A DNA stretch of 64,000 nucleotides from Patescibacteria group bacterium (GCA_040902515.1 JBBDXB010000006.1:404763-468762); one strand, 5' to 3'. Numbered from the stretch's first letter, positions 1 to 33,596 are shown. A program made the numbers and translations. The notes: generated by a model from the sequence alone, not told the origin.

Positions 1-816
1 GTCCGTGGCTTCTTCCCGAAGCCGGGCGAGGATGCGCGGCGACTGCGGGTCGTCGTCCGCCGTACCGCCGATCAGGACGAGCTGGAGTTCGGGTACCTGC
101 TGCTTGGCGAGCCGCCAGGCCTCGAGTACGCCGAGCGGGTCCTTCCATTGGTCGAAGCGGGAGACCTGCACGACGAACGGCCGGTCGGGATCGAGCGGGC
201 ACTGCGAGATCAGTTTCCGGGCCTCCGCCTTGGCCATCGGCTGGTTCTTCTCGGCCAGCGGGTCGATCGCCGGCGGGATGATCGCGGAATGGTCCGGCGC
301 GAATCCGGGCAGGCGGAACTTCTCCAGGCTGAAGATGCCACCCGTGTAGGACCCCAGGTACCGGACGAACCGCTGCTGGGCCGCGGGAAGCGGCTTTGAG
401 CTGTCGAGGTGGCATCGCCAGATCCACTCGGTCGCGTCGGCGTCGGGGTGGAAGAAAGGAATGGCGGCCGGCTGGGGGTCGTGGACGATGATGGCGTCCC
501 AGGCGGCCGGATCAAGCTGCGTACCGAGCTGCTTGCTGACCGCCTCGTACCGCTGCCATTCGGCGTCGGTCAGGTCGACCTGCTCGCCCTGCAGGGCGTT
601 ATGGATCTTCTTGGTGATCTCGAAGAAGTCGGGATCCGGCTCGATCACCTGCCACTCGGCCCGGATGCCGAGATCCTGCATCAGCGGAACCTCCGATCGC
701 AGGATTTCCGCTACGCCGCCGCCGTTGGCGGTGGAGTTGATGTGGAGAATGCGTTTGCCCTTGAGCTGCTCGCCCAGCTCTCTTAATGACGCGGCCTGTC
801 CTTCGGGTTGAGCCAC
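1..816 (-). CDS. treT: TreT-like trehalose glycosyltransferring synthase (GT4 fold). N-terminal ~270 aa lie in the window; the 3' end runs past the window start.
   Basis: Reverse translation gives ...SLRELGEQLKGKRILHINSTANGGGVAEILRSEVPLMQDLGIRAEWQVIEPDPDFFEITKKIHNALQG...WIWRCHLDSS...VSRFDQWKDPLGV... This is collinear with archaeal/bacterial TreT as remembered (HVNSTSFGGGVAEIL, FHNALQG, WRCHID, VSRFDPWKG motifs). The frame is open from the window edge. There is no in-frame ATG upstream of the conserved region, so a GTG near 814-816 is the likely start and is uncertain. Confidence 0.6.
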   Translation of the reverse strand, partial: MAQPEGQAASLRELGEQLKGKRILHINSTANGGGVAEILRSEVPLMQDLGIRAEWQVIEPDPDFFEITKKIHNALQGEQVDLTDAEWQRYEAVSKQLGTQLDPAAWDAIIVHDPQPAAIPFFHPDADATEWIWRCHLDSSKPLPAAQQRFVRYLGSYTGGIFSLEKFRLPGFAPDHSAIIPPAIDPLAEKNQPMAKAEARKLISQCPLDPDRPFVVQVSRFDQWKDPLGVLEAWRLAKQQVPELQLVLIGGTADDDPQSPRILARLREEATD

Positions 817-881
817 GCTGGCGCCGGGTCGTGATTTTGTTTCGATACTTCGGATACGCAGGCCGTAGTTATGGTTTAATC

Positions 882-897
882 TTAGCAAAAATGCTAA
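882..897. promoter_or_regulatory. Perfect 6-4-6 palindrome TTAGCAAAAATGCTAA in an AT-rich divergent intergenic region. Candidate operator.
   Basis: Read directly from the sequence. It sits between the divergent treT-like gene and the glycoside-hydrolase gene. This island (817-924) is about the only AT-rich stretch in a 65% GC neighbourhood. GATAC is also repeated at 846-863. Confidence 0.35.
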
Positions 898-924
898 TCT
901 GTCCGGCTGTCTCGAAAGGGAACC

Positions 925-2334
925 ATGCGACACGAACGGGAACACTTTTACCCGAGTGCATTGCGGGATTTCCGGAGCGTACGCGCTCCGGAGGGGCTTG
1001 GCGTGTTCGCCAGCGGTGATCGGCACTTCGACAACGCGGTGTTCGGCAGGGACTCCATCGAAGTCGCTGAGGACCTCCTTGGGAAGGACCCCGATCTCGT
1101 CGAAACGGTGATCCTTACGCTCGCGCGCCTGCAGGGAACTGACGATCGTGCTGTCTCCGAGGAGGAACCAGGGAAGATCCACCATGAATTCCGGCCGGGT
1201 GAGGTGGCCGGCAAGCCGATTCCCCGACATTCCGCCGCCATCCTCGACTCCTTGCTTGAGCGGTGGTCGGATCAGGCAGGCCGCGCAAGAAAGGAATTGA
1301 CCTACTATGGCTCCGTTGATGCCACCCCGGGGTATCTCAGACTGATTGGCCGATTTTGCGACGAGCATGGAAATGCCATCCTTAGCCGCGTCGTCGAAAG
1401 CCGTGCAGGGGAACGGACAACCGTACGGGAGACCGTCGATCGGGCCGCGGAGTGGCTTACCAGGAATCTGGAAGCATCACGTAGCGGATTACTGGAATAC
1501 CGACGTCGCAACCCCCGAAGCCTCAAGCATTTTTACTGGAAGGACTCCGGGACCGGGCTGCTGCATGAGGATGGCGCGGAACCGGCGATCGAAAGGCCGG
1601 TCGGCGCGACCGCTGTCCAGGGACTGGCCGTGGATGCTCTCGACTCGGCGGCGCAGCTGGTAGGGAAGAGCGATTCGGCGCAGGCGGAACGCTGGAAGCG
1701 GCTCGGGGCGCACGTCGCACGCAAGACCCTTTCGTTGCTTTGGTTGCCGGAGCGCGGCTACTTCGCATCGGGCTTTGACCGTTGCTCCGACGGGCGGTTA
1801 CGGCTTGTTACGACCGAGTCTTCGGACCAGGGGCTGCTGCTTGATTCGGCCATCTTCCAATACGAATCGCCGTCGGAATATCAGGGTCACGTCTCGGCCA
1901 TCCTGCGGCGGCTCTGCTCAAGCGAATTCATGACGGATTACGGCGTCCGCTCGCGGGCACTCCGACACGCTACCTTGACCGACCACGCCGACTATCACGG
2001 CTCCTTCGCCGTGTGGCCGAAGGAGACTCACGATCTGGCGCGAGGGATGCGCCGCCAAGGGTTCTCGCGTCTGGCGGATGAGCTGGAGCGCCGGAACATC
2101 AGGGCGGTGAATGAGAGCGGGGCCAACCAGGAACTGCTCTACGTGGACGAACGCGGGCATCTTGTCGATTATCGTTCATTGCCAGGTGCCCGGAGACCGG
2201 AACGGCTTCAGGCGTGGACCGTTTCAGCGATTCTGGAGGCGAAGCGTCGCCGTGGGAGCAGAGGCCTTCCCATATTTTCGGGGGCGGACGGATGGAAGCG
2301 TGCGCTGGAAACCGAATTGCTCGAATCGATCTGA
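925..2334 (+). CDS. Glycoside hydrolase of the (alpha/alpha)6-barrel type (amylo-alpha-1,6-glucosidase / GH15-GH63-like). Possibly acts on trehalose or a glucoside.
   Basis: 469-aa ORF with ATG at 925 and a GA-rich RBS. The composition is protein-like and the antisense frames are low-complexity. Family assignment is from general resemblance only (GDE/GH63-like motifs). Adjacent to the treT-like gene. Confidence 0.5.
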   Translation: MRHEREHFYPSALRDFRSVRAPEGLGVFASGDRHFDNAVFGRDSIEVAEDLLGKDPDLVETVILTLARLQGTDDRAVSEEEPGKIHHEFRPGEVAGKPIPRHSAAILDSLLERWSDQAGRARKELTYYGSVDATPGYLRLIGRFCDEHGNAILSRVVESRAGERTTVRETVDRAAEWLTRNLEASRSGLLEYRRRNPRSLKHFYWKDSGTGLLHEDGAEPAIERPVGATAVQGLAVDALDSAAQLVGKSDSAQAERWKRLGAHVARKTLSLLWLPERGYFASGFDRCSDGRLRLVTTESSDQGLLLDSAIFQYESPSEYQGHVSAILRRLCSSEFMTDYGVRSRALRHATLTDHADYHGSFAVWPKETHDLARGMRRQGFSRLADELERRNIRAVNESGANQELLYVDERGHLVDYRSLPGARRPERLQAWTVSAILEAKRRRGSRGLPIFSGADGWKRALETELLESI

Positions 2335-2358
2335 CTGACCCCTGTATACTCAGTTCGA

Positions 2359-3486
2359 ATGAAGAAACAAAAGCTGAGAATCGCGATTCTGGATTCCGTC
2401 CGCAACCCGGTTCCTTCGAAAGGAGTGATCCAGGCCAGCTCACGGATCGCGCTGCGTATCGCCGACGGCATGGCGATGCGCGGGCATGACATCACTTTGT
2501 TCGGGGCGAAGGGCTCCCGGAGCAAGGCGAATGTACGGACCGGAGGAATCAGGCCTGCCTCACGGACCCCGCTTTTCCGGCTGATCAAACATGAGCCGCC
2601 CGGTGCGCAGGCACGTGAGCGCGAGCGGGCCATCAATCTCTACGAGGGGCTTGGTCTGGCGGAGCTTTACCGCGAGCATTCCCGGAGGCCCTTCGACGTG
2701 GTCCATCTGCATCGGGCTCACCACGCGCTTCCTCAAGCGGCCTTGTTTCCTTCGTTGCCGCATCTCTTCACGTTCCATGACGAGGCGACGCCGTTGCGAC
2801 GCTTCGCCTATAAGCATTATGCGATGCCCAACATCCACTTCGTTGCCCTGAGTAAGCGTCAACGCCAGCTGGGAAAGGACATACCCTGGGCCGGTATCGT
2901 GCCGAATGGCATAGACGTGAACCGCTATCGCTTTTCGGATCGGCCTGAAAGGAGGCTCGTATTCGCCGGACGATTGGTCGAGGAGAAAGGGGCCCACCTG
3001 GCGATCGCCGCGGCCAAACGTGTCCGGTGGCCATTGAGGATCATCGGTCCGAGGACATTCCAGACGCTCACCGATACCGGTTACTGGGAACGGCAGGTGG
3101 AACCGCTGCTGGATAGCAGGATTCGTTATGCCGGATTCTTGCCTCCCGCCAAGCTGGCCGAAGAGTATTCAAGGGCAGCTGCGGTCCTGATGCCGATCGA
3201 TTGGGAGGAGCCGTTCGGTTTGGTAAGCGTCGAGGCGATGGCCTGCGGCACGCCGGTCATCGGCTTTCGACGCGGGGCGCTGCCCGAGATCATCAAGGAT
3301 GGTACGACGGGATTCTTGGTCGATGACGTCGCGGGAATGGTGCAGGCGATCCGGCGCGTTCAGGAGATCGACCGGACGGCTTGCCGCCGGCATGTCGAGC
3401 GCCACTTCACGGCCGACATGATGGTCGGGCGGTACGAAGACCTTTACTTTGATTTGGCACGGGCGCGACGAAAGAGGCGCTCGTAA
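2359..3486 (+). CDS. Glycosyltransferase family 4 (GT-B fold).
   Basis: C-terminal EX7E-type motif: EEPFGLVSVEAMACGTPVIGFRRGALPEIIKDGTTGFLVDD. Confidence 0.8.
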   Translation: MKKQKLRIAILDSVRNPVPSKGVIQASSRIALRIADGMAMRGHDITLFGAKGSRSKANVRTGGIRPASRTPLFRLIKHEPPGAQARERERAINLYEGLGLAELYREHSRRPFDVVHLHRAHHALPQAALFPSLPHLFTFHDEATPLRRFAYKHYAMPNIHFVALSKRQRQLGKDIPWAGIVPNGIDVNRYRFSDRPERRLVFAGRLVEEKGAHLAIAAAKRVRWPLRIIGPRTFQTLTDTGYWERQVEPLLDSRIRYAGFLPPAKLAEEYSRAAAVLMPIDWEEPFGLVSVEAMACGTPVIGFRRGALPEIIKDGTTGFLVDDVAGMVQAIRRVQEIDRTACRRHVERHFTADMMVGRYEDLYFDLARARRKRRS

Positions 3487-8472: not shown

Positions 8473-8572
8473 GTCCCGTCCATTGTACCGCAGCGGCCGC
8501 GGCCTGACGGTGGTTGACGCCGGACGGTAATTGTGGTATGGTTGTCTAATTTTTGAATAGACCCAACCCGAC

Positions 8573-9169
8573 ATGCATACCCACATCCTCAACCTGCTGC
8601 CCGACCAGGAAAAACAAAAGCGCCGCGTGGACGCGCTGAATTACTACACGCTGACGGCAGGTATCGTACTGGTGACCGGCGCCCTGGTGCTGGCCGGCAT
8701 CCTGCTCCTGTTCGACCAGGTGTACCGGACCAATCTGGCCAATCTCCAGCAGGAACGGTCCCAGGCGGAAAGCCAGTCGGCGGCGTACCTCGACATCGAG
8801 AAGGAAGCCAAGGACCTCGAGCTCCAGCTGGCCAACCTCCAGAAGGCGAACCAGGAGACGACCCGTTGGGCGTCCCTGATCGCGGCGCTCCGTTCGTTCA
8901 CGCCGCCGTCGGTCTCGATCAAGACGCTCGAATTCCAACCTGCCACGGACGCAGCCGCGGAGACGACCGTTCCCGATCGGCAGAACCGCAGCCGGATCTC
9001 CGGCAGCGCCGATAGCCGGCGGAGCCTGGGACAGTTCCAGCTGGCACTGTCCGAATCGCCGTTCCTGAAGAACGTGGAGATCGAGACCACTACGCTGAGC
9101 GAGAAGTTCGTCCAGTACTCGATCTCCATGGAAGTCGATTACCAGAAGCTGGAGGGACCGGCCACATGA
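8573..9169 (+). CDS. PilN-like type IV pilus assembly protein (second paralog, orphan).
   Basis: N-terminal INLLP-type motif (MHTHILNLLPDQEKQ), then one TM (LTAGIVLVTGALVLAGILLLF) and a coiled coil. This is the PilN architecture. No pilM or ATPase gene is adjacent. Confidence 0.6.
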   Translation: MHTHILNLLPDQEKQKRRVDALNYYTLTAGIVLVTGALVLAGILLLFDQVYRTNLANLQQERSQAESQSAAYLDIEKEAKDLELQLANLQKANQETTRWASLIAALRSFTPPSVSIKTLEFQPATDAAAETTVPDRQNRSRISGSADSRRSLGQFQLALSESPFLKNVEIETTTLSEKFVQYSISMEVDYQKLEGPAT

Positions 9170-9768
9170 GCCCGCACGTGAACGTCTCGCTCGGCTCGCT
9201 GAAACCGCCCCGCGGCCGCCTGTACTATTACCTGATCGCCGGCAATGCGGTGGTCCTGGCGCTGATCGGTTTCTTCGTGCTCCGTCCGGTATTCGGGGCA
9301 CTCAGTGCCCATGCCGACGAGATCGCACGGACCAAGGCCGATATCGCCACGTTGCAGCAAAAGACCGACGAGCTCCGCCAGCTCAAGGAAACGCTTCCGG
9401 CCGTCCAGGCCGCGTACGGCGGAGTAATCCAGAATGCCCCGAAGACGAAGGACATCGCCGGCTATCAGACCGAACTGGAGGAGCTGGCCGCGCTGACCAA
9501 GACCCGGCTGGTAACCGTGGATACCACCGGTGCCGGTCCGGACGGGCAGAGCCCGGCCACGCAGACGACCCAGACGGTCGCCGGATTTCCGACCTTCCCC
9601 GTGAAGATCGACGTGACCGGTGCGTATGCCTCGACGCTCGACTTCCTGAACCGGCTGGAGACGATGGATCGTTTCACGCGGGTGACAAGCGTCACGATCA
9701 ACCAGGCCGATGAAGCCGGCGGCGTGCAGCTGACCATCACCGCCCAATCCATTTACTTCGGTACCTGA
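9166..9768 (+). CDS. PilO-like membrane protein (second paralog).
   Basis: It overlaps the PilN-like stop (ATGA). There is one N-terminal TM, then a coiled coil (ADEIARTKADIATLQQKTDELRQLKE) and a C-terminal alpha/beta region. Position and architecture match PilO. Confidence 0.5.
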   Translation: MSPHVNVSLGSLKPPRGRLYYYLIAGNAVVLALIGFFVLRPVFGALSAHADEIARTKADIATLQQKTDELRQLKETLPAVQAAYGGVIQNAPKTKDIAGYQTELEELAALTKTRLVTVDTTGAGPDGQSPATQTTQTVAGFPTFPVKIDVTGAYASTLDFLNRLETMDRFTRVTSVTINQADEAGGVQLTITAQSIYFGT

Positions 9769-9769
9769 G

Positions 9770-11053
9770 ATGCGTATCTTCCTCACCATCCTCGAACTGC
9801 TGCTCGAACATCCGCTCCGGGCCGGACGGTGGGGTGTCCGGCAGCTGGACCGTGCCATCCTGGCACTGGTCGACCGGGCCGATGCGGGAATCGTCGGACT
9901 GGTACACGCCGTCGAACGCCGGACTCTCACGCTGACGGCACCGGCCCGCCGGGGCGTGCGCCGGATCGCGGCATGGACCGTCGCGCTGCTGCATAGGACG
10001 TGGCGGTGCGTCACCTGGCCGGCACGGGCCATGTTCCACGGAACCGTCGCGGTCATCCGTTCGGTTCACCGGACGGAACGGAATATCGTGCGGGCAATCC
10101 GTCGGACCGTGGACGCCGCCGCCGGGATGGCGGGTCGGACGGTCCGGACATTCGTCGGTGAAGTGATTTCGCTGCTGGGGGCGATCCTCGGTGCACCGGG
10201 ACGTCTCGGGAGGTCCCTGGAAGCACTGGTGCTGTACTGGATCACCGGCATCCGTCGCGTCGTCGAGGCGATCTTCGGACGGACGTTCGACTGGGCGCTC
10301 CGACCGATCCGAAAGCGCCAGGCCGCGCGGCTGCGCCGCGAGGCCGGCATTACCATGCCGATGACCCCCGACCACCACGCGCAACGGGAACTGCTGGCCC
10401 TGGCCGCCGGCGTCCTGCTCCTGGCCGCCGCCGGATGGCTGTATCTCGGCGGCACGGTGCCATCCGTCAGTACGATCGGAATCGGTTCCGGAATCTCGTT
10501 CGGGTCGGTGACCGACGCGGTGGCGGCGATGTCGCCGCTCCGGATGACGATCCTGGCCGCCGTCCTGGCACTGTTCGCCGTCGCCACGGTGTTCTGGGTG
10601 CGGATGCTTCGGGACAGTTACCGCCGGGAATACCCCACGGCCGTCGAGCGGACGCAGTGGCGGCTGGTAACGACCCTGCTCTTCATTCCCGGGGCGGTGC
10701 TCTACTTCTTCAAGCAATACAACCGTCTGCCGCTTCGTCGTTTCGCGGCCCGGCACCTGCTGTCATTGATGGTGACCGGCATGGCGGTGATCGTCGCATC
10801 CTCGACGTACGGGACCCTCTGGTACTTCAATCAGCAGGCCGAGGCCGAGGTGGACGGTACCGGCTACGCGGCCCCGAGTCTCCAGCTCGACCCCCGGGAT
10901 CGGGAGGAGATCCTCTCGCGCGACAAGTACGGTGCGCCGCTCCGTCGTGCGGAATCCGGCCGTTCCGACCCGTTCGCGCCGCTGCCGGGCGAGCAGCGGG
11001 AGGTCACGGACCCGGGTGCGTCACCGAGCCCGAGCCCGACGCCGGAATCCTGA
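9770..11053 (+). CDS. Hypothetical polytopic membrane protein with an Arg-rich amphipathic N-terminal region. Follows the PilN/PilO-like pair.
   Basis: The ATG is 1 nt after the PilO-like stop. About 200 aa of Arg-rich repeats come first (ILALVDRADAGIVGLVHAVERR / VRAIRRTVDAAAGMAGRTVRTFVGEVISLLG). Four predicted TM helices follow, then a Pro/Ser-rich tail. The antisense ORFs are low-complexity. Confidence 0.45.
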   Translation: MRIFLTILELLLEHPLRAGRWGVRQLDRAILALVDRADAGIVGLVHAVERRTLTLTAPARRGVRRIAAWTVALLHRTWRCVTWPARAMFHGTVAVIRSVHRTERNIVRAIRRTVDAAAGMAGRTVRTFVGEVISLLGAILGAPGRLGRSLEALVLYWITGIRRVVEAIFGRTFDWALRPIRKRQAARLRREAGITMPMTPDHHAQRELLALAAGVLLLAAAGWLYLGGTVPSVSTIGIGSGISFGSVTDAVAAMSPLRMTILAAVLALFAVATVFWVRMLRDSYRREYPTAVERTQWRLVTTLLFIPGAVLYFFKQYNRLPLRRFAARHLLSLMVTGMAVIVASSTYGTLWYFNQQAEAEVDGTGYAAPSLQLDPRDREEILSRDKYGAPLRRAESGRSDPFAPLPGEQREVTDPGASPSPSPTPES

Positions 11054-11627
11054 ATCGGCGATTAAAGGGACCGTAGTAATCGACCGCGTCGATCCGCGCG
11101 ACGGTCTGTCCGCCCGTGACGGAGACGGTCAGGATGGACCGGTCGCTGCAGTGCGACGCTTCGTATCCCGACTGGCCCGCAAGCTGCCGTTCACAGCGGG
11201 CGCCGGCGGTATAGTAGCCGCGGTATCCCGGGTCGGTGGCTTTCGAAACGCTGTATACCCGGTACGTTCCGGCCGGGACGGCCAGACGGTAGCCGAGTCC
11301 ATGTAAGAATCCGGCTCCCTCCGTGACTTCCGCACAGGCGGTGAACGGCCGGTCCGTCGCTTCGGCGCAGACCGTAAGGTCGGCCGGTGCGGAGCCCGCC
11401 GGATACGCCGCTGATCCGGTAAGCGTTCCTTCTGCCCCGGGCATCACCTTGGAAATGTCCTGGCCGGGCGCCAGGATTTCCGGAGAAGCCGCAGGGGGTG
11501 AAGTTGCCGATCGGCTGCCGCTCTCTCCAAGAATGAGCAAGGAGGTGCCGGCCAAGGCGACGGCCGCGAGGACCGCGGCGGCGGCAAGGACGTTCACGTG
11601 ACCAATACGGTTCCATAACATATGCAC
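11004..11627 (-). CDS. Hypothetical secreted protein (signal peptide, 4 Cys).
   Basis: N-terminus MHMLWNRIGHVNVLAAAAVLAAVALAGTSLLILG looks like a signal peptide. Convergent ~50-nt overlap with the upstream membrane-protein gene. Start uncertain. Confidence 0.4.
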   Translation of the reverse strand: MHMLWNRIGHVNVLAAAAVLAAVALAGTSLLILGESGSRSATSPPAASPEILAPGQDISKVMPGAEGTLTGSAAYPAGSAPADLTVCAEATDRPFTACAEVTEGAGFLHGLGYRLAVPAGTYRVYSVSKATDPGYRGYYTAGARCERQLAGQSGYEASHCSDRSILTVSVTGGQTVARIDAVDYYGPFNRRFRIPASGSGSVTHPGP

Positions 11628-11750: not shown

Positions 11751-13052
11751 ATGATCGGAGCGCTCTTCCGTGGGCTGTTCTGGTTCACGGTGATGATGGT
11801 CGCTTTCGCGCTTATCGTCGCCGAGAGTCAGGCACAGCCCCCGACATACTTGCCGTGGGATTACGGCAAGACCTACCGCATCACGCAGGGAAACGGATAC
11901 GGCGGTCACGGATTTCCCTATAATCATTACTCATGGGATTTCGCGATGCCGACCGGCACGCCGGTCCGGTCGGCCGCCGCCGGCACCGTTCGCGAGGCGG
12001 GGTACGCCTTTGGCCGGGGTTGGGGCAACGTCGTGCTGGTGTGCTACGGCGACGGGACCTGCTCCCGGTACGCCCATCTGTCTTCGATCGCCGTCCGGGT
12101 CGGGCAACGGGTCGGCCGGTACGCGTTCCTGGGAAGGGTCGGCTCGACCGGCCATTCCTCGGGGCCGCATCTGCATTACCAGCTCGAGCGGTCGGGCCGG
12201 CGTGACGTGAGCATTCCCTCACGGTTCGTGGAGGCTGGAGTACCTGGTTCGTGGCAGTGGGTCACCAGCCGGAATCGTCCGGTACGGGCCGGGCTGACGT
12301 TCGGCCAGGCCAGGGTGTACTCCTCGCCGACGCTATCCGTGGCGGCGGGCGGCTCGGTACGTGCGGTCGTGACCGCGCGCTACACCGGCGGCTGGCGGGT
12401 GCCTTGCGGCCGGATGAACCTCGGTGTACGGGGTGACGGTCCGGCCCGCTTCGCCGACCATCAGGCCGGCTGGTGGCCAAGGTCGACCTGGCGCTATCCG
12501 AACCGGGTGGCCGCGGTGGATTGTCTCGGCTACCTTGATCCCGGTGAGTATGCGCGCTGGGACCTTCGGTTCCACGTACCGGAGGATACCCCGGACGGCA
12601 CGTACCTTACCGGCGTCTATGCGCCGGTCCATGAGGGCAAGGCCTGGTCCGCCCTCCGGATTCCGATCCGGTTGCGCGTGCAGGGTGCCTATCGTGCCCG
12701 GTACGTCGGCCAGTCGGGACCCCCGTCAGTCGCTCCGGGCGGCTCGGGAGCCGTGCGGTTCCTGCTCTGGAACACCGGGCGGGCGACGTGGCGTCGTGGC
12801 GAGGTAAACCTCGGCACGCGGGAAGACAGGAAGTTTCCGTTCGCCGATGCCAGCTGGGGCCGCCATGCCAACCGCCTGCTGCTGCACGAGCAGGCGGTAC
12901 CGCCCGGATCCACGGGCACGTTCGAGGGAACGTTCCGCGTTCCCCCAGGGACTCCGCCAGATCGGTATCGTCAGGACTTCGCACCCGTCGCGGAGCACAA
13001 GCAGTGGTTCGGAGAGAAGATCGGTATCTACATGGTCTTCACCGTGGAGTGA
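11751..13052 (+). CDS. Secreted M23 (LytM-type) metallopeptidase with two C-terminal Ig-like domains (NBR1-like, assigned from memory).
   Basis: Signal peptide. The M23 core reads YNHYSWDFAMPTGTPVRSAAAGTV...GNVVLVCYGDGTCSRYAHLSS...GSTGHSSGPHLHYQLE (HxxxD ... HxH). Two ~110-aa repeats follow (LLWNTGRATWRRGEVNLG...FEGTFRVPPGTPPDRY). Confidence 0.8.
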   Translation: MIGALFRGLFWFTVMMVAFALIVAESQAQPPTYLPWDYGKTYRITQGNGYGGHGFPYNHYSWDFAMPTGTPVRSAAAGTVREAGYAFGRGWGNVVLVCYGDGTCSRYAHLSSIAVRVGQRVGRYAFLGRVGSTGHSSGPHLHYQLERSGRRDVSIPSRFVEAGVPGSWQWVTSRNRPVRAGLTFGQARVYSSPTLSVAAGGSVRAVVTARYTGGWRVPCGRMNLGVRGDGPARFADHQAGWWPRSTWRYPNRVAAVDCLGYLDPGEYARWDLRFHVPEDTPDGTYLTGVYAPVHEGKAWSALRIPIRLRVQGAYRARYVGQSGPPSVAPGGSGAVRFLLWNTGRATWRRGEVNLGTREDRKFPFADASWGRHANRLLLHEQAVPPGSTGTFEGTFRVPPGTPPDRYRQDFAPVAEHKQWFGEKIGIYMVFTVE

Positions 13053-13233
13053 CGGGCAGGCACCCTTGAAACAAAAGCGAGGATCGCGCGGTTGGGGATG
13101 AATCGTGTCCGGCATGGGCCGTGACGCTACTCGTCCTCAGCCGCGCTCCTCGCTCTTTTTCCGATGTCCGCCGATCCGGTATGGCAGCCGGACGCGGGCG
13201 ACCCGCGGCTTCCCGGTTGGTACAATAGGAAGC

Positions 13234-14397
13234 GTGAAAGAAGCCCTGCGAAACATCTGGCGGCGGAAGACCCGTTCGGCCCTGACCATCTTCGGGGTGG
13301 GAATCGGCATCTTCGCGTTCGTCACCATGGGCGCCCTCTCCCAGAGCCTGGGCAAATCGGTCCAGGTCGGTATCGACTACTTCAGCAACCGCATCCTGGT
13401 CACCCAGGACAGCGGCGGTTTCGGCGGGCCGTTCGCGGTCGGTCCGCAGCTGCCGGCCAGCATCACCGAGCGGATCGAGGTGATCGACGGCGTGGAGCGG
13501 GCCTACCCGACGCTATTGCTCCTGGCGGAGAAGGGCGCGGACTTCTCGGTCACGTCGTCACCCGATACGATCCAGGGCGTGCCGCCGGCCGAGACCGCCA
13601 AGGACCGGTTCAAGCTCGAGATCAGCGAGGGGCGCGCGTTGCGGCCGGACGATACCGGCAAGACGGTGATCGGTTCGAACGTCGTCCAAAAGCAGGGGTT
13701 GGGCGTCGGCGACACGGTCGAGCTGCGCGGCAAGCGGTTCGAGGTCGTCGGGACTCTGCGACGGACCTCCGCCCGCCCCGATTCCTTTTATGTGGTACCC
13801 CTTGCCGATGCGGTCGAGCTCTCCCGGAACATCACCCAGTTCACGACCAGTACCGAAGAGTTGGTCACGAACATCAATGTCTTCCCCGAAGAGGGGGTGG
13901 ATTCCACCGTGCTGACCGAGCGGATCGAGTCGACGATCAGCGGCGTGGACGGCACCCCGCCCGAGCAGCTGCAGGAATCATTGGAAGAAGTGTCCGCCGT
14001 CTTCAACCTGATCGTCCTCGGCAGCGCGCTGCTCGCCATCCTGGTCGGCGGACTTTCCGTGATCAATACCATGGTGATGAGCGTCGCGGAACGCCGGAAG
14101 GAGATCGGCATCAAGCGGGTGGTCGGTGCCCGTGCCCGCCATATCATCCGTGAGACGGTCACGGAGACGGCGTTGATGGGACTGTTCGGCGGCGCGATCG
14201 GGTCTGCGGGCGGACTGCTGCTCACGAATATCATCAACGCGCAGACGCGGAAAGAGGGCCTCGAGCTCTTCCTGGTCACGCCGGAACTGCTTGCCGCCGC
14301 ATTCGGGTTCGCGTTTTCGCTCGGCATCCTTGCCGGCCTCTACCCGGCATGGCGTGCCACCCGGGTAAAACCGGTAAACGTATTGAGGGAATCATGA
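13234..14397 (+). CDS. ABC transporter permease of the FtsX/MacB type.
   Basis: VKEALRNIWRRKTRSALTIFGVGIGIFAF is the MacB/FtsX N-terminal TM1 signature. A C-terminal FtsX-like four-TM region follows. Start taken as GTG 13234, 8 nt after a TACAAT box. The track start at 13105 adds an implausible 43-aa leader. Confidence 0.75.
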   Translation: MKEALRNIWRRKTRSALTIFGVGIGIFAFVTMGALSQSLGKSVQVGIDYFSNRILVTQDSGGFGGPFAVGPQLPASITERIEVIDGVERAYPTLLLLAEKGADFSVTSSPDTIQGVPPAETAKDRFKLEISEGRALRPDDTGKTVIGSNVVQKQGLGVGDTVELRGKRFEVVGTLRRTSARPDSFYVVPLADAVELSRNITQFTTSTEELVTNINVFPEEGVDSTVLTERIESTISGVDGTPPEQLQESLEEVSAVFNLIVLGSALLAILVGGLSVINTMVMSVAERRKEIGIKRVVGARARHIIRETVTETALMGLFGGAIGSAGGLLLTNIINAQTRKEGLELFLVTPELLAAAFGFAFSLGILAGLYPAWRATRVKPVNVLRES

Positions 14398-15254
14398 TCC
14401 GGTTCCGCAAGAAGCAGGCGCCCAAGGCGACCGGCGGGAAGTTCTTCACCAAGCAGGAGACGAAGGACCTGCCGCCGATCGTCGAACTGAAAGACGTCCA
14501 TCGGAATTACCGGGAGGGCGCCCAGCCGGTGAAGGCGCTGCGTGGCGTGAACCTGGACGTAGGGCGCGGTGAGATGATCGCGATCATGGGGCCGTCCGGT
14601 TCGGGCAAGACGACGTTACTGAACATCGTCGGGCTCCTGGATACGCCGGATGCCGGCACCGTGAAGTTCGCCGGCGTCGACCTGGGGGAACTCAAGCGCC
14701 GGAAGGTGCCGGTGTTCCGCCAGAACGAAGTCGGCATGATCTTCCAGCAGAAGAACCTGATCCCATCGTTGACCGCGTTCGAGAACGTGTACCTCCCGTT
14801 CCGTTACGCGCGCGGTAAGCGTTCCCAGGGGCGGGAACAGGCGCGCGAGGCACTCCGGCTGGTGGGGATGCTCGAGCGCTCAGAACACCTGCCGCATCAG
14901 TTGTCGGGCGGTGAGAAGCAGCGGGTAGCGGTCGCTCGGGCCCTGGTGCTTTCGCCCGCGGTGGTGCTGGCCGACGAGCCGACAGGGGAACTGGATTCCG
15001 CCAACAGCCACCACGTGATGGAGCTGCTCCGCGAACTCAACCGACGGACCGGCCAGACGTTCATCATCGTTACGCATGACCGGTCGGTCGCGGACGTCTG
15101 CGACCGGACGCTGCACATGGAAGACGGGAAGATCAAGGAGACGACGCGGAAGCGACCGGTGCAGAAGGCACCGGAGAAGGCCTCCGCCAAACGGCCGTCC
15201 GCGAAGCGTCCTGCCGCACCCGTTCAGCGCGCCGGAAAAGCGAGGAAGCGCTGA
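14394..15254 (+). CDS. ABC transporter ATP-binding protein with a Lys/Ala/Pro-rich C-terminal tail.
   Basis: Walker A GPSGSGKTT, signature LSGGEKQRVAVARAL and Walker B VLADEPTGELD are present. ATGA overlap with the permease stop. Tail: KRPVQKAPEKASAKRPSAKRPAAPVQRAGKARKR. Confidence 0.85.
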   Translation: MIRFRKKQAPKATGGKFFTKQETKDLPPIVELKDVHRNYREGAQPVKALRGVNLDVGRGEMIAIMGPSGSGKTTLLNIVGLLDTPDAGTVKFAGVDLGELKRRKVPVFRQNEVGMIFQQKNLIPSLTAFENVYLPFRYARGKRSQGREQAREALRLVGMLERSEHLPHQLSGGEKQRVAVARALVLSPAVVLADEPTGELDSANSHHVMELLRELNRRTGQTFIIVTHDRSVADVCDRTLHMEDGKIKETTRKRPVQKAPEKASAKRPSAKRPAAPVQRAGKARKR

Positions 15255-15472
15255 TGTTCGGCTACTCCTTCCCGCTGCTCTTCGGCCGGTTGTTCGGCGT
15301 GGGGCTCTTCGTGCTCGGCCTGATCTTTCTCAAGCGGTTCCGTCGTGACGACGATCCGATGCTGGTGCTCAAGAGTTCGTTGAAGAGTCCGTGGGTCTGG
15401 TTCTTTACCGTCCTGGCGTGGGTCGCGTTCGCATTCGAGATCATCTACCTCCAGAACCAACCGGTGTCGTAA
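15254..15472 (+). CDS. Possible 72-aa two-TM microprotein coupled between the ABC ATPase and murD.
   Basis: TGATG overlap with the ATPase stop and TAATG overlap with the murD start. Two hydrophobic helices. No homology recognised. Confidence 0.35.
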   Translation: MFGYSFPLLFGRLFGVGLFVLGLIFLKRFRRDDDPMLVLKSSLKSPWVWFFTVLAWVAFAFEIIYLQNQPVS

Positions 15473-16854
15473 TGGAGCGTCGCCCGGCGACGGTCACGGA
15501 AGTCCGTGGACGACGGGTCGCCGTGCTGGGCCTCGGCGTGGAGGGAACCTCCGCGGCGCGGTGGCTCTTGCGACACGGCGCTGAAGTCACGGTATGTGAC
15601 CGGCGAACCCGGACGGCGCTCGGGCCGGTCATCCGCGAGCTTGTCGGGCATGGGGTCACGGATTTCCGGCTCGGCCCGCGGCACGCGGATCGGTTGACCG
15701 ACTTCGACATAGTTATCCGGACTCAAAGCCGTCCGTATCGTGACCCGCGGATCCAACGGGCGATACGCCGCGGAACGACAGTCACCTCGGTAACCAAGCT
15801 CTTCTTCGAGCGCTGCCCCGCGAAAGTCATCGGCGTCACGGGAACCAAGGGCAAGGGCACGACCAGCTCCCTGATCGCAAGGATGCTCAAGGCGGCCGGT
15901 AAACGTGTCTATCTCGGGGGCAACATCGGCATGTCCCCGCTCGATTTCCTGGACCGACTCCGGAAAGGTGACCACGTGGTGCTGGAGCTCTCAAGCTTCC
16001 AGTTGCAGGACCTCACGCAGTCACCATCGATCGCCGTGGTGACCAACGTCACGGCGGACCATCTCGATCATCACGCGAGCGTCCGTGAATACCGGTCGGC
16101 GAAACGCCCGATCACCAGGCACCAGCGCCGGACTGACTTGGCGATCCTGAACGCCGACGATCCTGGCAGTCACCCGTTCGCCGGAGACCCCGGCCGGACG
16201 AGCTGGTTTTCGACCCGTCGCCCGCAGCCACGGGGCGCCTGCGTCCGGGACGGCTGGGTGGTCGTCCGCGGTCGCCGGGTGCTTCGGACCGCGGACATCG
16301 TGGTGCCGGGAACCCACAACCTCCGGAACGTCCTCGCGGCGAGCCTCGCGGCTGACGCGCTCGGCATCGGACCGCGGGTCATCACGAAGACCGTCAGGCG
16401 CTTCCGGGGACTCCCGTACCATTTCGAGTATCTCGGGACCAAGCAGGGAGTGCGGTACTTCAACGATTCCTACGCGACCAATCCGACCGCGGCCATCCCG
16501 GCGATCGAAAGTATCGATACTCCGTTGGTGCTGATCGTGGGCGGTGCGAAGAAGGGCCTTTCGTACGATGGGTTGGCACGGGCCATCCTCGTCAAGAAGG
16601 TCCGGGCGATCATTACGATTCCGCCGGAGGGCGCGCGGGTCGCGCGGGCAGTCAGGATCGCGGCCCGACGGTCGGGCAAGCCGGCTCCGCGGGTCGTCGG
16701 TGCCGTGCGTAAAGGCGATCTGGTGCGGTTGGCCCGGCGTCATGCCGAACCCGGCGACACCGTCCTGTTTTCCCCGGCAGCGGCCAGCTTCGGCTGGTTC
16801 CCCGACTACACGGAGCGCGGACGGTACTTCACTGAACAAGTGAAGGGCCGGTAG
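15472..16854 (+). CDS. murD: UDP-N-acetylmuramoylalanine--D-glutamate ligase MurD.
   Basis: N-terminal Rossmann RVAVLGLGVEGTSAARWLLRHGAEVTVCD. Mur-ligase P-loop VIGVTGTKGKGTTSSLIARML. Start taken at ATG 15472 (MERRPATV) rather than the track start. Confidence 0.8.
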   Translation: MERRPATVTEVRGRRVAVLGLGVEGTSAARWLLRHGAEVTVCDRRTRTALGPVIRELVGHGVTDFRLGPRHADRLTDFDIVIRTQSRPYRDPRIQRAIRRGTTVTSVTKLFFERCPAKVIGVTGTKGKGTTSSLIARMLKAAGKRVYLGGNIGMSPLDFLDRLRKGDHVVLELSSFQLQDLTQSPSIAVVTNVTADHLDHHASVREYRSAKRPITRHQRRTDLAILNADDPGSHPFAGDPGRTSWFSTRRPQPRGACVRDGWVVVRGRRVLRTADIVVPGTHNLRNVLAASLAADALGIGPRVITKTVRRFRGLPYHFEYLGTKQGVRYFNDSYATNPTAAIPAIESIDTPLVLIVGGAKKGLSYDGLARAILVKKVRAIITIPPEGARVARAVRIAARRSGKPAPRVVGAVRKGDLVRLARRHAEPGDTVLFSPAAASFGWFPDYTERGRYFTEQVKGR

Positions 16855-23987: not shown

Positions 23988-24953
23988 ATGATCACGAAGC
24001 TCGGCATGAGGAAGCTCATCCTGGGCCTGGTGCTGGGGGTGATCCTCCTCGGTACTGCGGGTGCGGGGTCGGCGTGGGCGTTGCCCGCTCCGTTTGCCTG
24101 GTGCGACGGTCAGCCCCGGGATGCGGAGGCTGGGTGGGTGGAGTGCCGTACCGGTCAGGAGGTCAAGGCGGTTACCCGCCAAAACCTCCTTGACCCAAAC
24201 GACACGCCTGTGCCTGCCGACTGGGACCCTCATTACGAGAACGACACGTTCCAGCCGGAGCAGTTCGATACGACTACGTTCCGGTACGTCTACACGGTGC
24301 CGGGTACGTATGTCGTTCACTTTCGGACTGATGATGGGCGACAGGGCAGGATGGTGGTTCAAATCACCGACTCTGCCATCCTCACCCAGGAGCCCGCGTT
24401 CCAGTTCACGCCCGTTCATCCGCGGCGTCCGAACGGCGGCGACCAGTACGAGACCCGTCTGTTCAGGGGCGGCGAGCATCGGGGCAAGTGCATGGTGGAG
24501 CGTTCGGTCGGCTACTATGCCTACCGTGACCACACCTACCGTGCGGGCATCGTCATCCGGTACCGGTTCGTGAAAAGGAAGCGTGTCCGCGGCTCGAAGC
24601 GCGTCCGGCGTGTCGTCCGTAAGGGCCGGCTGGGAGCGGATCGTGATCCAGGCACGACCTACACGGCCTCGCAGGACCATCGCTTCGCAGGCGTAGGCGT
24701 GCTGTTCGCGGCACGTGGAAGCAAGGAGGCGCGCCGTCGCTTCCGCCGTTTCGAGCGCCTCGGCACCCGGTTCGTAGTGATCCTGCGTGAGCGGATCGTC
24801 GCTGCCGACGGTTCGACGCTCTACTACACCAAGCGTCGTAACTGGCTGGATCCGACCTCGTGTTCGTTCATCGACAAACCACGAAGACGGGTCCAGAAGA
24901 AGCGCACGCGCCGAAAGCAGTCCATGGCAACAACCCGGTCACCCAATCGCTGA
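23988..24953 (+). CDS. Hypothetical secreted protein with an extremely basic Arg/Lys-rich C-terminal third.
   Basis: Signal peptide MITKLGMRKLILGLVLGVILLGTAGAGSAWA. RBS GGAAAGGTGA. The C-terminus reads RYRFVKRKRVRGSKRVRRVVRKGR...KPRRRVQKKRTRRKQ. Confidence 0.55.
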   Translation: MITKLGMRKLILGLVLGVILLGTAGAGSAWALPAPFAWCDGQPRDAEAGWVECRTGQEVKAVTRQNLLDPNDTPVPADWDPHYENDTFQPEQFDTTTFRYVYTVPGTYVVHFRTDDGRQGRMVVQITDSAILTQEPAFQFTPVHPRRPNGGDQYETRLFRGGEHRGKCMVERSVGYYAYRDHTYRAGIVIRYRFVKRKRVRGSKRVRRVVRKGRLGADRDPGTTYTASQDHRFAGVGVLFAARGSKEARRRFRRFERLGTRFVVILRERIVAADGSTLYYTKRRNWLDPTSCSFIDKPRRRVQKKRTRRKQSMATTRSPNR

Positions 24954-25089: not shown

Positions 25090-28000
25090 GTGCGCTCGAT
25101 TCCAGTTCCCAGATTTCTGAAACTGCTCCAGTTTGCCGCCATTGTCGTCGGCGGGCTTTCCGGTGGTGTGGCCGCGGGGGATGTCGCAGAGGCGTACCGG
25201 TACATAGTGCCGCCGACGAATTTTGGCGGTGAAGTGCATATCCGGACGACAATCAACCAGTCGTATGTATCCAACGACCCGGCGGAAGATGGTCCCCCAA
25301 GGGATAGTCAGTCAGATACCATCGCTTATATGCCGACGCAGTATCTGGTGTTTTCAAAAAGCCGGGACATCCGTATCGATATCAAAGGAGGACGTTTCGA
25401 TTTTGACGACTGGGGGGACACTATCAGGACCTGTCCGTCCCCCGGCTGTGAGGGACCACTTGCGAGCGGCAGAAGCTTTATCTATGAGCTGTATCAACTA
25501 GAGGAACTGAATCGACTGAGTGGAGAAAACCAACGATTGGCGGCGGTCGGTGCTCGAAGCGGACATCCGTCCATGAGCACAACGAACATTGCTGCCAACG
25601 ACGCGAACTGGGATCCCGACCCACTCTTTGATACCGGAAACGTCAGTGTTTCGGCGCGTCGATTCAAGGACGAACAGGGCCTCTATCCGCAGTGGAAAGG
25701 GTATTATGTCTTTCTGATCAAGGTCGTGCACGACCGCGATCAGAACAACGGATACATAGATCGCGCCGATCGATTCATTAGAAGTTTCCAGAATGATCCC
25801 TTTTTCAACGGTGGTGCTGAGCGTAATTTCGACGAATATGTGGAAGAGCGCGGTTGTGCGGTGATTAATGGAAAATACCTTGAGCCCGATGCTCCCGTAG
25901 TCTGTCCCGACAGGTGGCGAGAAAGCGTAGCTGTCGATTTCAATGAAGCTTTTGAGATCGCAGGAAACACTCACTGGATCCGTACGCCAAACAGTTCTGA
26001 GGATGGACATCCTGTCTACATGGCAAGCGCGCCCTCGGAGCTTGCTTTCAACGTGCGCCAGAACTTCTACGACAGCTCCTTGCCCAGCACGCACGCCCAG
26101 ACCTCGACCGGGCTTCGCATCAACACGGTCGGTGAGGAAGCGGGCTGCCGTAATGACGGCACCCCACGACCGCGGCTGACGAACACCGACTGGGACCGGG
26201 CCGCCGAAGTGCAGGATGGTCCACCGCCAGCAGGCAGCGTCGACAACAGACCGAAGGCGGAAATCAGGTTCCCCGGGCGGGGCTCGGTGCCGATTGACGC
26301 CGGCGTGACCGGTGGTCCGCCACCCGATGGTTACTTCCCCAGCGGTCTTGGACGGGTCGGTACGTTCCCGATGGCGGTAGCGGGCGTCGGTCCCAACGTC
26401 CAGACCGCCATGAACCTCTACAGCTTCGGAAGGAATAACCAGCTCTACATGGGTGGTGCGTACATCACCGCGACGGGGCCGTTCGTGGGGCCGATCGTCG
26501 GGTGCGTCCAGGACATCCAGGTGTCGCCGCTCTCGCCGAGGAGCGTATTCTCCGGCTACCGCTATAACGGTCGGGACTCGTTCTCTGTGACGTCCGGACA
26601 CACGCAGGGACTGCTGAACTTCCGGTTCCAGTACCGCAACGTGGGTAGCTATGCCCCACAGGTCGGCCAGGCGGACTGGCGGGTCGAGGTGGCCGGAGTC
26701 GGCCAGGTCGGCAGTGGCCGGGACATCTTCACGAACGATTCGCAGCCGACCCAGTGGAACGCCCGTGCCGTGAACAACGTCGACATGGGCGGGCACGCCG
26801 GCTTCCGCCTGTGGCGCGCCTGCGTGAATGCGGCTGGCAAGGATCGCTGCTCCGGCTGGGTCACGTTCCAGGTCAACGACGGTCCGATCGCCCAGATCCT
26901 CTCGCCCGCCAACAACGCGAACGTGAACCATAACCAGTGCACGCCGCTGACCTCGCGCATGACCGACCCGGACACGGGTGAACGCGTGGGCGCCCGCTTC
27001 AACGTCACCTGGAACGACAGCCGCGGCTCGAACGTGGTCTACACCCGCCTGTATGACTATCCGGCTACGCTCAAGAACAACGGGTCAACGTTCTCAGCAG
27101 ACGAACTCCGCGTGGAGAGCTGGCAGACCAATGGCAGCAACCAGTCGTTCGTTCCGAACATCACCCTGACCGACTTCATCCGGCGGTACGTGCCCGACGG
27201 CGTGGACGTCAACTGGAACTCCCGCGGCTACGACTTCACCGGAGCCTCCGACCTGAACGGCACCCGCCGGTTCCACGCGAATCTCTACAGCCCGCCGATC
27301 AGTCTGCTGGACACGCTCCAGACTTCCACGCCTCACTTCCGCTGGGGACTCGCGGCCGGCGCGGCGTACCACCGCAACACGCGGCCGATCCTCGACGCCA
27401 GTCCGCAGACCGCCAAGAACCTCTACGATCTGAGCGACAGCGGGTTCGCGACGCCGCTTACCAACGTCACCGACGGACAGACCGTCCGGGTCCGGACCGT
27501 CGTGACCAACTCCGGCGAGACGCCGACGCCGTTCTACCAGATATATGACTACCTCGGCAGCACCCGTGACTTCGAGAAGCCGAAGAGCGTGAGCATCCGC
27601 AAGGGCGACGGCGGCACCAGGACGTTCATGCGCGCCAACGAGGTTGATGACCTGATCAAGCAGGTCATGGTCCGTAACGAGGATAATCCGAACCTGGACC
27701 AGGAAGGGCCGTTCCCCACGGACAGCGCGGACTACCGAAACTCCGCCTGGCGGATCGACTTCGGCGCGAATACCGCCTCCGGTTCGCTCCTGAACCGGGC
27801 CGCCGGTTCCAGCCAACTGAATCCGGGCGAGAAGATCATCATCGAATATACCATTCGTGCCAACCGGAACCAGGCGATTACTCCGCCGCAGATCGACCCC
27901 GATGCCGCCGACGAGGAAGGGAACTTCCAGCGCCGGCAGCCGGTGGGTGATTCCCGCGGCGGCGTGGCTCCGTCCGACACCCACACGCACCTGTACTATC

Positions 28001-30038: not shown

Positions 30039-30055
30039 GATTCCGGAGAACCATC

Positions 30056-30769
30056 GTGCCGACACTCAACATCAACCTTCTCAGGAAAGAACAACGACAG
30101 GTGGACCGCCTGTCGCAGGCGACGGTGATCGTCGGTGCGGTATCCGGCTCGGTCGTCGCACTCTCGCTGCTGGTCGTGGTCTTCCTCTACACCACGATCG
30201 CGATCAAGGACAGCCAGAAGCAGGGATTGATCGAGGATCGCGACCGGTTCGCCGGCGAGATCGACGAGCTTGCCGAGTTCGAACAGCCGTTTTACCCCGA
30301 GATGACGCTGTCGCAGCAGGCCGGGGCCTACCAGCAGCAGGTGGACGGACTCCGGGAGCTGATCGACAACCACAAGTACTTCACGCTCTATCTTTCGGAA
30401 ATCGCGGTCAACACGCCGCTTTCCGTGATCTACCGGTCCTTCGCGTCGGAAAGCAACGACCGCCTGACCGTGACCGGTCGTGCTAAGACCTACGGCGACG
30501 TCTCGAAGCTCGCGAAGAAGTTCGAGAACCTCTCGTTCGCCCGCTCCTCCAGCATCCAGGACGCGCAGCTGGAGCGGACGGAGAGGGAGTATCCGGTGCA
30601 GTTTACGCTGGTGATCGAGCTGAAGTCCGCGGCGGAGCTCAAGAAGCTGCCGGGACCGAGCCAGGCGGGAGAGTCGGGCGCCGCCTCGCCGCAGCCGACG
30701 CCGAATGCCTCGCCGCCGCAGCCGCCCGAAGGCGCGGATGACGTACCCTTACCGCTCGGGGGCTCCTGA
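30056..30769 (+). CDS. pilN: PilN.
   Basis: MPTLNINLLRKEQRQ (INLL motif), one TM, coiled coil, Pro/Ala-rich tail. Confidence 0.8.
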   Translation: MPTLNINLLRKEQRQVDRLSQATVIVGAVSGSVVALSLLVVVFLYTTIAIKDSQKQGLIEDRDRFAGEIDELAEFEQPFYPEMTLSQQAGAYQQQVDGLRELIDNHKYFTLYLSEIAVNTPLSVIYRSFASESNDRLTVTGRAKTYGDVSKLAKKFENLSFARSSSIQDAQLERTEREYPVQFTLVIELKSAAELKKLPGPSQAGESGAASPQPTPNASPPQPPEGADDVPLPLGGS

Positions 30770-33594: not shown

Positions 33595-33596
33595 CC

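Follow-up and report, generated by a model that had tools for sequence, protein, structure and literature searches.

Of all parts of the type IV pilus motor, PilM-PilN-PilO is understood least. In the type IVa PilM-PilN-PilO-PilP sets of Pseudomonas aeruginosa, Neisseria meningitidis, and Thermus thermophilus, and in HofMNOP of Escherichia coli, pilN and pilO are followed by a third gene. The first two products are bitopic, each with a ferredoxin-like ectodomain, PilN carries an (I/L)NLLP-type peptide at its N terminus, and PilP is membrane-tethered and bears an RxDPFxP-type motif in an unstructured stretch. PilP is regarded as a linker to the secretin, PilN-PilO stability depends on it, and monoderms are considered to lack it (PMC6916266). 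Here, we describe a trio of genes, pilN2, pilO2, and ORF3 (ORF, open reading frame), in a window of 64 kb (the whole stretch of DNA that was analyzed; GC content, 65%) from a genome of Saccharibacteria, which belong to the candidate phyla radiation; the closest related loci come from Candidatus Saccharibacteria or Saccharimonadia. The trio resembles the type IVa sets in its gene order, in its PilN and PilO architecture, in its PilN peptide, and in the membrane tether and motif of its third protein. It differs from them in that its operon has no pilM, the pilus locus of the organism has no secretin, and ORF3 is a 427-amino-acid (aa) polytopic protein with a large, putatively cytoplasmic domain and with its motif at the C terminus instead of the N terminus. 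The explanation that we favor, and to which we give about an even chance, is that the trio forms an accessory or alternative, clade-specific PilN-PilO-"PilP" inner membrane subcomplex that would join the existing pilus motor through PilM. ORF3 would then be an enlarged, secretin-less PilP analogue.

Three other systems invite comparison. Nanosynbacter lyticus TM7x has two pilM-pilN-pilO sets, and its locus 2 contains PilB2, PilC2, PilM2, PilN2, and PilO2 (PMC11623550). In Campylobacterota, PilM/N/O homologues build a cage around the flagellar motor (PMC10823254). The PilN/PilO paralogues of the motor cage lie apart from the pilus locus, as they do here; unlike the cage set, the window contains no flagellar genes, and the pilus-type interfaces are kept. 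In the GspL-GspM-GspC set of type II secretion, the resemblance lies in PilO2, which passes the T2SSM model, and in the PilN2 ectodomain, the model of which superposes best on GspL proteins (PulL, XcpY, and EpsL). Unlike in GspL, however, no cytoplasmic PilM-like domain is fused to PilN2, and the GspC HR/PDZ domain, type II secretion genes, and an outer membrane are all missing.

Gene organization and family membership of PilN2 and PilO2

The three genes of the trio are arranged as follows.

8573 to 9169, plus strand: pilN2, 198 aa, PilN family, bitopic
9166 to 9768, plus strand: pilO2, 200 aa, PilO/GspM family, bitopic, its start overlapping the pilN2 stop (ATGA)
9770 to 11053, plus strand: ORF3, 427 aa, clade-specific polytopic membrane protein

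The ATGA overlap at the pilN2/pilO2 junction spans 4 nt (9166 to 9169), and a 1-nt gap separates the TGA stop codon of pilO2, which ends at 9768, from the ATG of ORF3 at 9770. Coordinates, junctions, and the 427-aa length agree with a first-pass annotation made from the sequence alone. That annotation also spoke of a PilN/PilO pair "fused" to the membrane protein gene, whereas the three are separate ORFs, coupled and without any gene fusion.

The assignment of the first two genes to the PilN and PilO families held against hidden Markov model (HMM) thresholds. PilN2 scores 31.5 bits with Pfam PilN (PF05137; gathering cutoff, 22.8), and PilO2 scores 41.0 bits with Pfam PilO (PF04350; cutoff, 22.0). 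PilO2 also passes T2SSM (29.3 bits; cutoff, 27.8) and matches NCBIfam GspM with an E value of 7.6e-9, although its score is below the cutoff of that model. A precomputed PF05137 match is present in all 22 PilN2 homologues (at least 43% identity). In PilN2, a cytoplasmic N-terminal ILNLLP peptide and one transmembrane (TM) helix lead into a long coiled coil, and an alpha-beta-beta domain forms the C-terminal end. In its AlphaFold2 (AF2) model, which has a predicted local distance difference test (pLDDT) value of only 67, a helix (residues 11 to 109) is followed by a beta-alpha-beta domain with strands at 114 to 120, 140 to 146, 165 to 176, and 179 to 188 and a helix at 149 to 160. The best matches of this model in the PDB (Foldseek) are the periplasmic domains of PulL (5hl8; E value, 3.6e-4), XcpY, and EpsL, together with T. 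thermophilus PilN (4bhq). As modeled, the ectodomain shows a PilN/GspL-type architecture.

PilN and PilO as such are ordinary, and the first is already named "PilN domain-containing protein" at NCBI. Ratios of nonsynonymous to synonymous substitution rates (dN/dS) are 0.05 to 0.20 for PilN2 and 0.08 to 0.18 for PilO2. When the window ORFs were compared by phmmer, PilO2 matched PilO1 of the main pilus locus with an E value of ~1e-3, and no match was found between PilN2 and PilN1; the two are deep paralogues of the main-locus pair.

Putative PilM-binding peptide of PilN2 and the main pilus locus

PilN2 begins with MHTHILNLLP, where ILNLLP occupies residues 5 to 10, and we take the LNLLP part to be the PilM-binding motif. 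Residues N7, L8, L9, and P10 do not vary among 23 sequences, none of which is encoded next to a pilM, and (I/L)NLLP is kept at the N terminus of all PilN2 homologues; E. coli HofN carries INFLP. A highly conserved N-terminal PilN motif sits in a pocket of PilM (PMC5805733, citing Thermus and Pseudomonas structures), and our literature search found no description of an INLLP-type motif. The candidate receptor lies in the main pilus locus.

28953 to 30038, plus strand: pilM of the main locus, Pfam PilM_2 163.5 bits, the sole PilM within the window

Comparison of all window ORFs by phmmer revealed no second PilM-like ORF. The main locus is a complete pilus locus with this single pilM, and, within the window, pilM, pilB, pilT, pilC, and prepilin-type signals are confined to positions 28953 to 42197, ~18 kb from the end of ORF3. 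The pilN2/pilO2 pair is therefore an orphan, as the first-pass annotation had concluded from the lack of pilM, an ATPase, and a pilin nearby. Among the 13 loci in which the trio was found, pilM is adjacent in none, and the upstream neighbor of pilN2 is a divergent yebC. From the conserved peptide, we infer that PilM of the main locus may be the in-trans partner of PilN2.

A single pilM in the window would also suit a regulatory decoy or checkpoint, in which PilN2 competes with PilN1 for PilM and so gates the number of machines, with no assembly role of its own. The PilN2 peptide ILNLLP is indeed more canonical than the NINLLR of PilN1, and a promoter-like site of its own precedes the trio, in the 100-bp divergent stretch that separates yebC from pilN2.

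8514 to 8542, plus strand: promoter-like site, TTGACG-17 nt-TATGGT with a TG extension, sigma-70-like, from a consensus scan (pattern match alone)

For a decoy, however, the N-terminal peptide and one TM helix would be enough, whereas purifying selection is strong on both ectodomains, that of PilN2 and that of PilO2, and on the ORF3 core and tail; we consider this explanation distinctly unlikely.

Some other genes of the main locus are worth recording. The post-pilO gene there (31437 to 31721, plus strand) encodes a 94-aa TM protein with an acidic tail ending in ...STVNPFE. Directly upstream of pilM lie a gene for a 1,267-aa secreted protein (25090 to 28893, plus strand) and, before that pair, one for a 321-aa protein (23988 to 24953, plus strand) with a signal peptide, an extremely K/R-rich C-terminal half, and no Pfam match. 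The products of these two genes may be pilus-associated adhesins or surface proteins.

Tail motif of ORF3 and its link to pilus operons

ORF3 lies where pilP is found in type IVa operons, directly after pilO (1 nt from the pilO2 stop), and its acidic tail contains a short conserved motif.

10958 to 10993, plus strand: GRSDPFAPLPGE motif, ORF3 residues 397 to 408, candidate PilP-like docking peptide

The motif is of the GRxDPFAPxPG type (GRSDPFAPLPG in the window copy). Outside the membrane segments, ORF3 is most conserved at residues 380 to 408 (ILSRDKYGAPL...GRSDPFAPLPGE), and D400, P401, F402, and P404 do not vary among 27 sequences. Among genome contigs, the sole relative outside the ORF3 family is a 103-aa single-pass protein (locus L007, 7013 to 7324) that ends in ...GRPDPFAPIPGVSSK; its gene sits between pilO and pilB in a complete operon, pilM-N-O-x-B-(RR)-T-C-pilin, where RR is a response regulator. 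The pilO-x-pilB arrangement was seen for two further small-protein members (L013, 5001 to 5312; L014, 5001 to 5303). In hhalign, the ORF3 family aligned with the small post-pilO proteins over the tail only (29 columns), with a probability of 94.3% and an E value of 1e-7.

The link between the motif and pilO extends to metagenomes. A motif-only scan of 241 million metagenome records with back-translated GR.DPFAP[ILV]PG gave 53 loci, 35 of which encode proteins of 88 to 186 aa with the motif at the extreme C terminus. pilO is immediately upstream in every small-protein locus with enough upstream room (32/32), and the remaining 3 of the 35 have pilB directly downstream; wherever the flanks reach, pilN and pilM precede pilO, and pilB/pilT/pilC follow. 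ORF3 homologues account for 3 of the 53 loci; their genes come after pilN and pilO, and neither pilM nor pilB is present. Lipoprotein-like proteins with the motif near the N terminus account for 4, and the remaining loci have a doubtful ORF or none that is in frame. The small proteins (L007 plus the 35 metagenome loci) have the tail pattern ...LL.R..YG.PL/..PE..GRxDPFAP(I/L/V)PG in common with ORF3, and in both groups the gene immediately follows pilO and the motif tail lies behind a TM helix. They differ from ORF3 in being four times smaller, in having one TM helix, and in lacking the Arg-rich domain and the PLDc_N-like module described below; they belong to complete pilMNO-x-pilBTC operons, whereas no pilB lies downstream of ORF3.

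The first-pass annotation had suggested that the PilN-PilO scaffold was borrowed for a different membrane complex. Because LNLLP is invariant and the conserved tail motif of ORF3 occurs elsewhere almost exclusively in post-pilO proteins, we instead read PilN-PilO as kept for a pilus role.

The motif also occurs, near the N terminus, in proteins that diderms encode directly upstream of a secretin gene. E. coli K-12 HofP (L070, 1616 to 2020, minus strand) begins with MRVKRWLLAGIALCLLTG-MRDPFKPP, which places the motif right after the signal peptide, and hofP lies between hofO and the secretin gene hofQ in hofMNOPQ. P. aeruginosa PilP presumably carries a motif of this kind as well. No DPF-type motif of PilP or PilO was found described in the literature searched. 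One of the four lipoprotein-like proteins from the scan (L022, 2402 to 2878, minus strand) has GRDDPFAPLPG near its N terminus, and a secretin gene (769 to 2397, minus strand; Pfam Secretin, 147 bits) lies directly downstream. ORF3 itself has no lipobox and no PilP beta-sandwich, and its tail is modeled as coil. The ORF3 tail is best read as a putative PilP-type docking peptide without the secretin-binding domain.

The scan also brought up proteins that merit a note of their own. The small DPFAP proteins of Patescibacteria type IV pilus operons (~100 aa, single-pass, C-terminal GRxDPFAP(I/L/V)PG) have no Pfam family or name; each looks like a "tail-only" PilP in secretin-less organisms. A single-domain response regulator gene lies between pilB and pilT in DPFAP operons (L007, 9200 to 9589; L013, 7188 to 7577; L014, 7123 to 7569). 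The other lipoprotein-like proteins (L021, 3283 to 4035, minus strand; L040, 7936 to 8571, minus strand; L042, 1467 to 2012, plus strand) combine an N-proximal GRxDPFAPLPG with a C-terminal beta-rich domain and have no pilus genes nearby. None of the four, L022 included, matches Pfam PilP; those of L021, L040, and L042 could be unrecognized PilP-like proteins away from pilus operons.

ORF3 is a genuine gene with a fast-evolving N-terminal domain

ORF3 has no family in Pfam or NCBIfam, its model matched no PDB fold with an E value below 1, and its tail found no PDB sequence at E values up to 10. The ORF is a real gene, as judged from its third-position GC content (GC3), homologues, profile search, and dN/dS. 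In-frame GC3 is 0.78 to 0.85 over the full length. Eleven homologues (37 to 75% identity) are all full length, with the reading frame intact in every relative, and an exhaustive HMM search of 1.84 billion cluster representatives gave 19 full-length members and no other protein of that architecture. Pairwise dN/dS values are 0.40 to 0.49 for residues 1 to 195, 0.07 to 0.26 for the membrane core, and 0.08 to 0.24 for the tail, so that the gene is under purifying selection. The conservation check that the first-pass annotation called for was thus borne out, with an intact frame in relatives, dN/dS of 0.07 to 0.49, and coupling to pilO2 throughout; neither of the two outcomes that it had named as fatal, PilN/PilO calls below HMM thresholds and an ORF3 frame that is not conserved or is shifted in relatives, was observed. 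One short ORF3-type form exists (P0027, 215 aa).

The three genes lie side by side and closely coupled at each of the 13 loci examined (the window, L001 to L006, L008/L009, L010, L015, L016, L035, and L038; 37 to 97% identity, including members at 37 to 43%), and, in relatives, pilO2 and ORF3 overlap by up to 4 nt or stand up to 4 nt apart. The ORF3 family and the 22 proteins of the PilN2 family share one narrow distribution, and the trio is restricted to a narrow Saccharibacteria clade.

The N-terminal half of ORF3 is unusual in composition.

9770 to 10354, plus strand: ORF3 residues 1 to 195, Arg-rich amphipathic helical domain, hendecad (11/3), fast-evolving

Here, the first-pass description of ~200 aa of Arg-rich amphipathic sequence proved accurate: Arg makes up 17% of residues 1 to 195, and 35 K+R stand against 13 D+E. 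Hydropathy has a sharp period of 3.67 residues (power, 210 versus 45 at 3.6), and its autocorrelation, averaged over 26 homologues, peaks at lags 4, 7, 11, 15, 18, 22, and so on, undamped to 40. AF2 places long helices at 15 to 96, 104 to 139, and 145 to 191. The sequence changes fast while composition and periodicity are kept. These properties point to hendecad amphipathic helices, either membrane binders lying on the surface or right-handed coiled coils, and the domain is probably cytoplasmic. An internal start at Met196 or Met198, which would drop the Arg-rich domain, is ruled out by GC3, dN/dS, and the kept periodicity.

The poor conservation of this N-terminal part raises the question of whether the trio is instead a decaying remnant of a second pilus locus, similar to locus 2 of TM7x, with the Arg-rich part an annotation artifact of a high-GC genome. 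TM7x does have two pilM-pilN-pilO sets (PMC11623550), and out-of-frame Arg-rich ORFs are common at 65% GC. The three genes are, however, intact in all 13 loci across the whole identity range, with dN/dS of 0.05 to 0.26 and, even in the N-terminal part, 0.40 to 0.49, and in-frame GC3 is 0.78. In addition, the 3.67-residue period is common to 26 homologues, whereas an untranslated or out-of-frame stretch would lose it. The selection and periodicity data largely refute the remnant or artifact explanation, which we regard as barely credible.

Membrane core and predicted topology of ORF3

Behind a conserved juxtamembrane stretch (PIRKR..A..AK..AL....TPDH.SHREL), ORF3 has clear hydrophobic helices at residues 208 to 226 (TM1), 259 to 277 (TM2), and 332 to 352 (last TM helix) and a weaker, Pro-Gly-kinked one at 298 to 316. 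Of the four TM helices in the first-pass annotation, three are therefore clear, and the fourth may be re-entrant; the Pro/Ser tail that it described is there, the acidic C terminus ending in PSPSPTPES.

10535 to 10717, plus strand: ORF3 residues 256 to 316, weak PLDc_N-like membrane module, FWxRMLRDSxRR...W..V..LFxPGAxxYFF
10763 to 10825, plus strand: last TM helix of ORF3, residues 332 to 352

The module at residues 256 to 316 is the best-modeled part of the protein (pLDDT, 79 to 92), with a helix break at 304, just ahead of the Pro-Gly. It has the pattern FWxxxMLxDxxRR...W...V..L.xPGAxxYFF in common with the small two-helix PLDc_N proteins and the N terminus of cardiolipin synthase, and the ORF3-family profile matches small PF13396 (PLDc_N) proteins with E values of 1.5e-7 to 1e-3. 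Unlike in those proteins, the module is embedded in a larger protein and stays below the PF13396 cutoff (ORF3, 13.1 bits, and P0027, 17.3 bits, versus 23.3).

The charges around the last TM helix indicate where the tail lies. A basic loop, YNRLPLRRFAARH (4 K/R), precedes this helix and an acidic stretch follows it, so that by the positive-inside rule the tail is predicted to be outside. The uncharged loop between TM1 and TM2 is of Gly/Ser. In the predicted topology, the N terminus is inside, TM1 runs outward and TM2 inward, 298 to 316 is re-entrant, and the last TM helix runs outward to the external tail.

The PLDc_N-type proteins themselves (P0028 to P0064) have positive charges at both ends of their second hydrophobic segment, and in several of them an exported domain comes ahead of the first helix. 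Both features suggest that the second, Pro-Gly-containing segment is re-entrant and does not span the membrane, which would bear on the topology of the entire PF13396 family.

Neighboring genes

The surroundings of the trio are syntenic, with RuvC and YebC divergent upstream and, downstream, a convergent gene, an M23 peptidase, and usually a MacB/FtsX ATP-binding cassette (ABC) pair.

11004 to 11627, minus strand: ORF4, 207 aa, convergent on ORF3
11751 to 16854, plus strand: cell wall string of a secreted M23 peptidase (93 bits), a MacB_PCD/FtsX permease, an ABC ATPase, and a MurD-like Mur ligase

ORF4 has a signal anchor and four conserved Cys residues, and it overlaps ORF3 by 50 nt through a 17-aa C-terminal extension (RFRIPASGSGSVTHPGP) that is specific to the window copy. 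The secreted Cys-containing protein that the first-pass annotation placed opposite ORF3 thus exists, but it does not count among the conserved partners of the trio, being kept only in the window and L001 to L005 and replaced in more distant members. We rejected ORF4 as a fourth component for this restriction to close relatives, and it is not part of the unit, because the distant members L008, L015, and L016 carry an unrelated protein in the convergent position. The trio and ORF4 had no matches in PADLOC and PHROGs, and we reject a defense or phage origin.

Wherever the flank is long enough, the second gene downstream of ORF3 is that of the M23 peptidase, and the M23-MacB/FtsX-ABC string resembles an FtsEX-hydrolase arrangement. 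This setting is one argument that the trio is a self-standing, non-pilus envelope complex with a co-opted PilN-PilO scaffold. In one version of that explanation, the trio positions or regulates the M23 hydrolase and the MacB/FtsX ABC system in wall remodeling or division, and the Arg-rich domain of ORF3 serves as a membrane or curvature anchor. Consistent with co-option, none of the loci has pilM, an ATPase, or a pilin in or near the operon; M23 is usually followed by MacB_PCD/FtsX and the ABC ATPase and, in the window, by the MurD-like ligase; the similarity of PilN2 and PilO2 to their main-locus counterparts, PilN1 and PilO1, is marginal (E values of ~1e-3 or worse); and the flagellar motor cage of Campylobacterota (PMC10823254) offers a precedent. 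However, the pilus-specific interfaces, LNLLP and the post-pilO tail motif, are conserved, the M23 gene, behind a convergent gene, forms a separate transcription unit with its own promoter-like site, and L008 has no MacB/FtsX after M23. Synteny within one narrow clade is, moreover, a weak sign of a functional link. On balance, co-option appears to be on the unlikely side. A bolder form would make the trio an autonomous, pilus-independent envelope machine, with a PilN-PilO ring held by ORF3, a hendecad domain that senses or shapes the membrane, and the M23 hydrolase opening the wall, e.g., at host contact; this, too, we hold to be unlikely.

Farther along the window, two long ORFs from crude GC3-based calls, at 46462 to 48813 and 56571 to 58859 (both plus strand), have Arg/Ser/Ala-rich N termini and high second-position GC contents of 0.54 and 0.59, respectively; the frame called may be the wrong one, or the genes may be real and their starts misplaced.

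Proposed mode of action

In the accessory subcomplex that we favor, PilN2 and PilO2, to go by their family membership, would pair via coiled coils and ferredoxin-like ectodomains, and the cytoplasmic LNLLP of PilN2 would recruit the main-locus PilM. ORF3 would replace PilP: its last TM helix would set the acidic, Pro/Ser-ended tail outside the cell, where the tail motif is proposed to dock on PilN2-PilO2. In place of a secretin-binding beta-domain, which it lacks, ORF3 would add the PLDc_N-like module and a cytoplasmic Arg-rich domain of ~200 residues, which would most likely rest on the anionic inner leaflet or assemble into a right-handed coiled coil. In this way, ORF3 might tether some of the pilus machines or direct them to their place, e.g., at a given membrane site, although this last step is speculative.

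Several observations weigh against such a subcomplex. The conserved neighbors of the trio are an M23 peptidase and recombination genes, and no pilus genes are among them. The similarity between the ORF3 tail and the small proteins spans ~29 columns, a length at which a convergent short motif is possible, and neither ORF3 nor its tail matched Pfam PilP (PF04351) at E values up to 10. The topology of ORF3 is ambiguous; if 298 to 316 spans the membrane, the tail would be cytoplasmic and out of reach of the PilN-PilO ectodomains. The function given to the N-terminal domain is guesswork. The inventory of pilM, pilB, and pilC covers 64 kb of the genome, and further copies may lie beyond. Finally, the post-pilO protein of the main locus (31437 to 31721) has no detectable relation to the DPFAP family and has in common with it only position, topology, and the terminal NPFE.

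Implications for type IV pilus assembly

In the literature that we searched, the three-gene architecture, the ORF3 family, and the link of its tail to the small post-pilO protein and to PilP/HofP-type proteins appear to be new. The trio is confined to a narrow, uncultivated clade, and its function is predicted. Saccharibacteria need their pili to move and to attach to the host (PMC11623550), and a second PilN-PilO set with a putative PilM-binding peptide suggests that one motor could be served by alternative scaffolds. The PilP-type motif persists without the secretin-binding domain, either in a tail-only protein of ~100 aa, in many Patescibacteria pilus operons, or as the tail of a large membrane protein, in the orphan operon. 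Under the bolder explanation given above, which we hold to be unlikely, proteins with a DPFAP tail would be PilP-like stabilizers of PilN-PilO in secretin-less bacteria, contrary to the view of PilP as a secretin linker only. Should the motif indeed bind PilN-PilO, PilP would serve at its core to stabilize the ring of these two proteins or to regulate it, and a bridge to the outer membrane would not be its main purpose.

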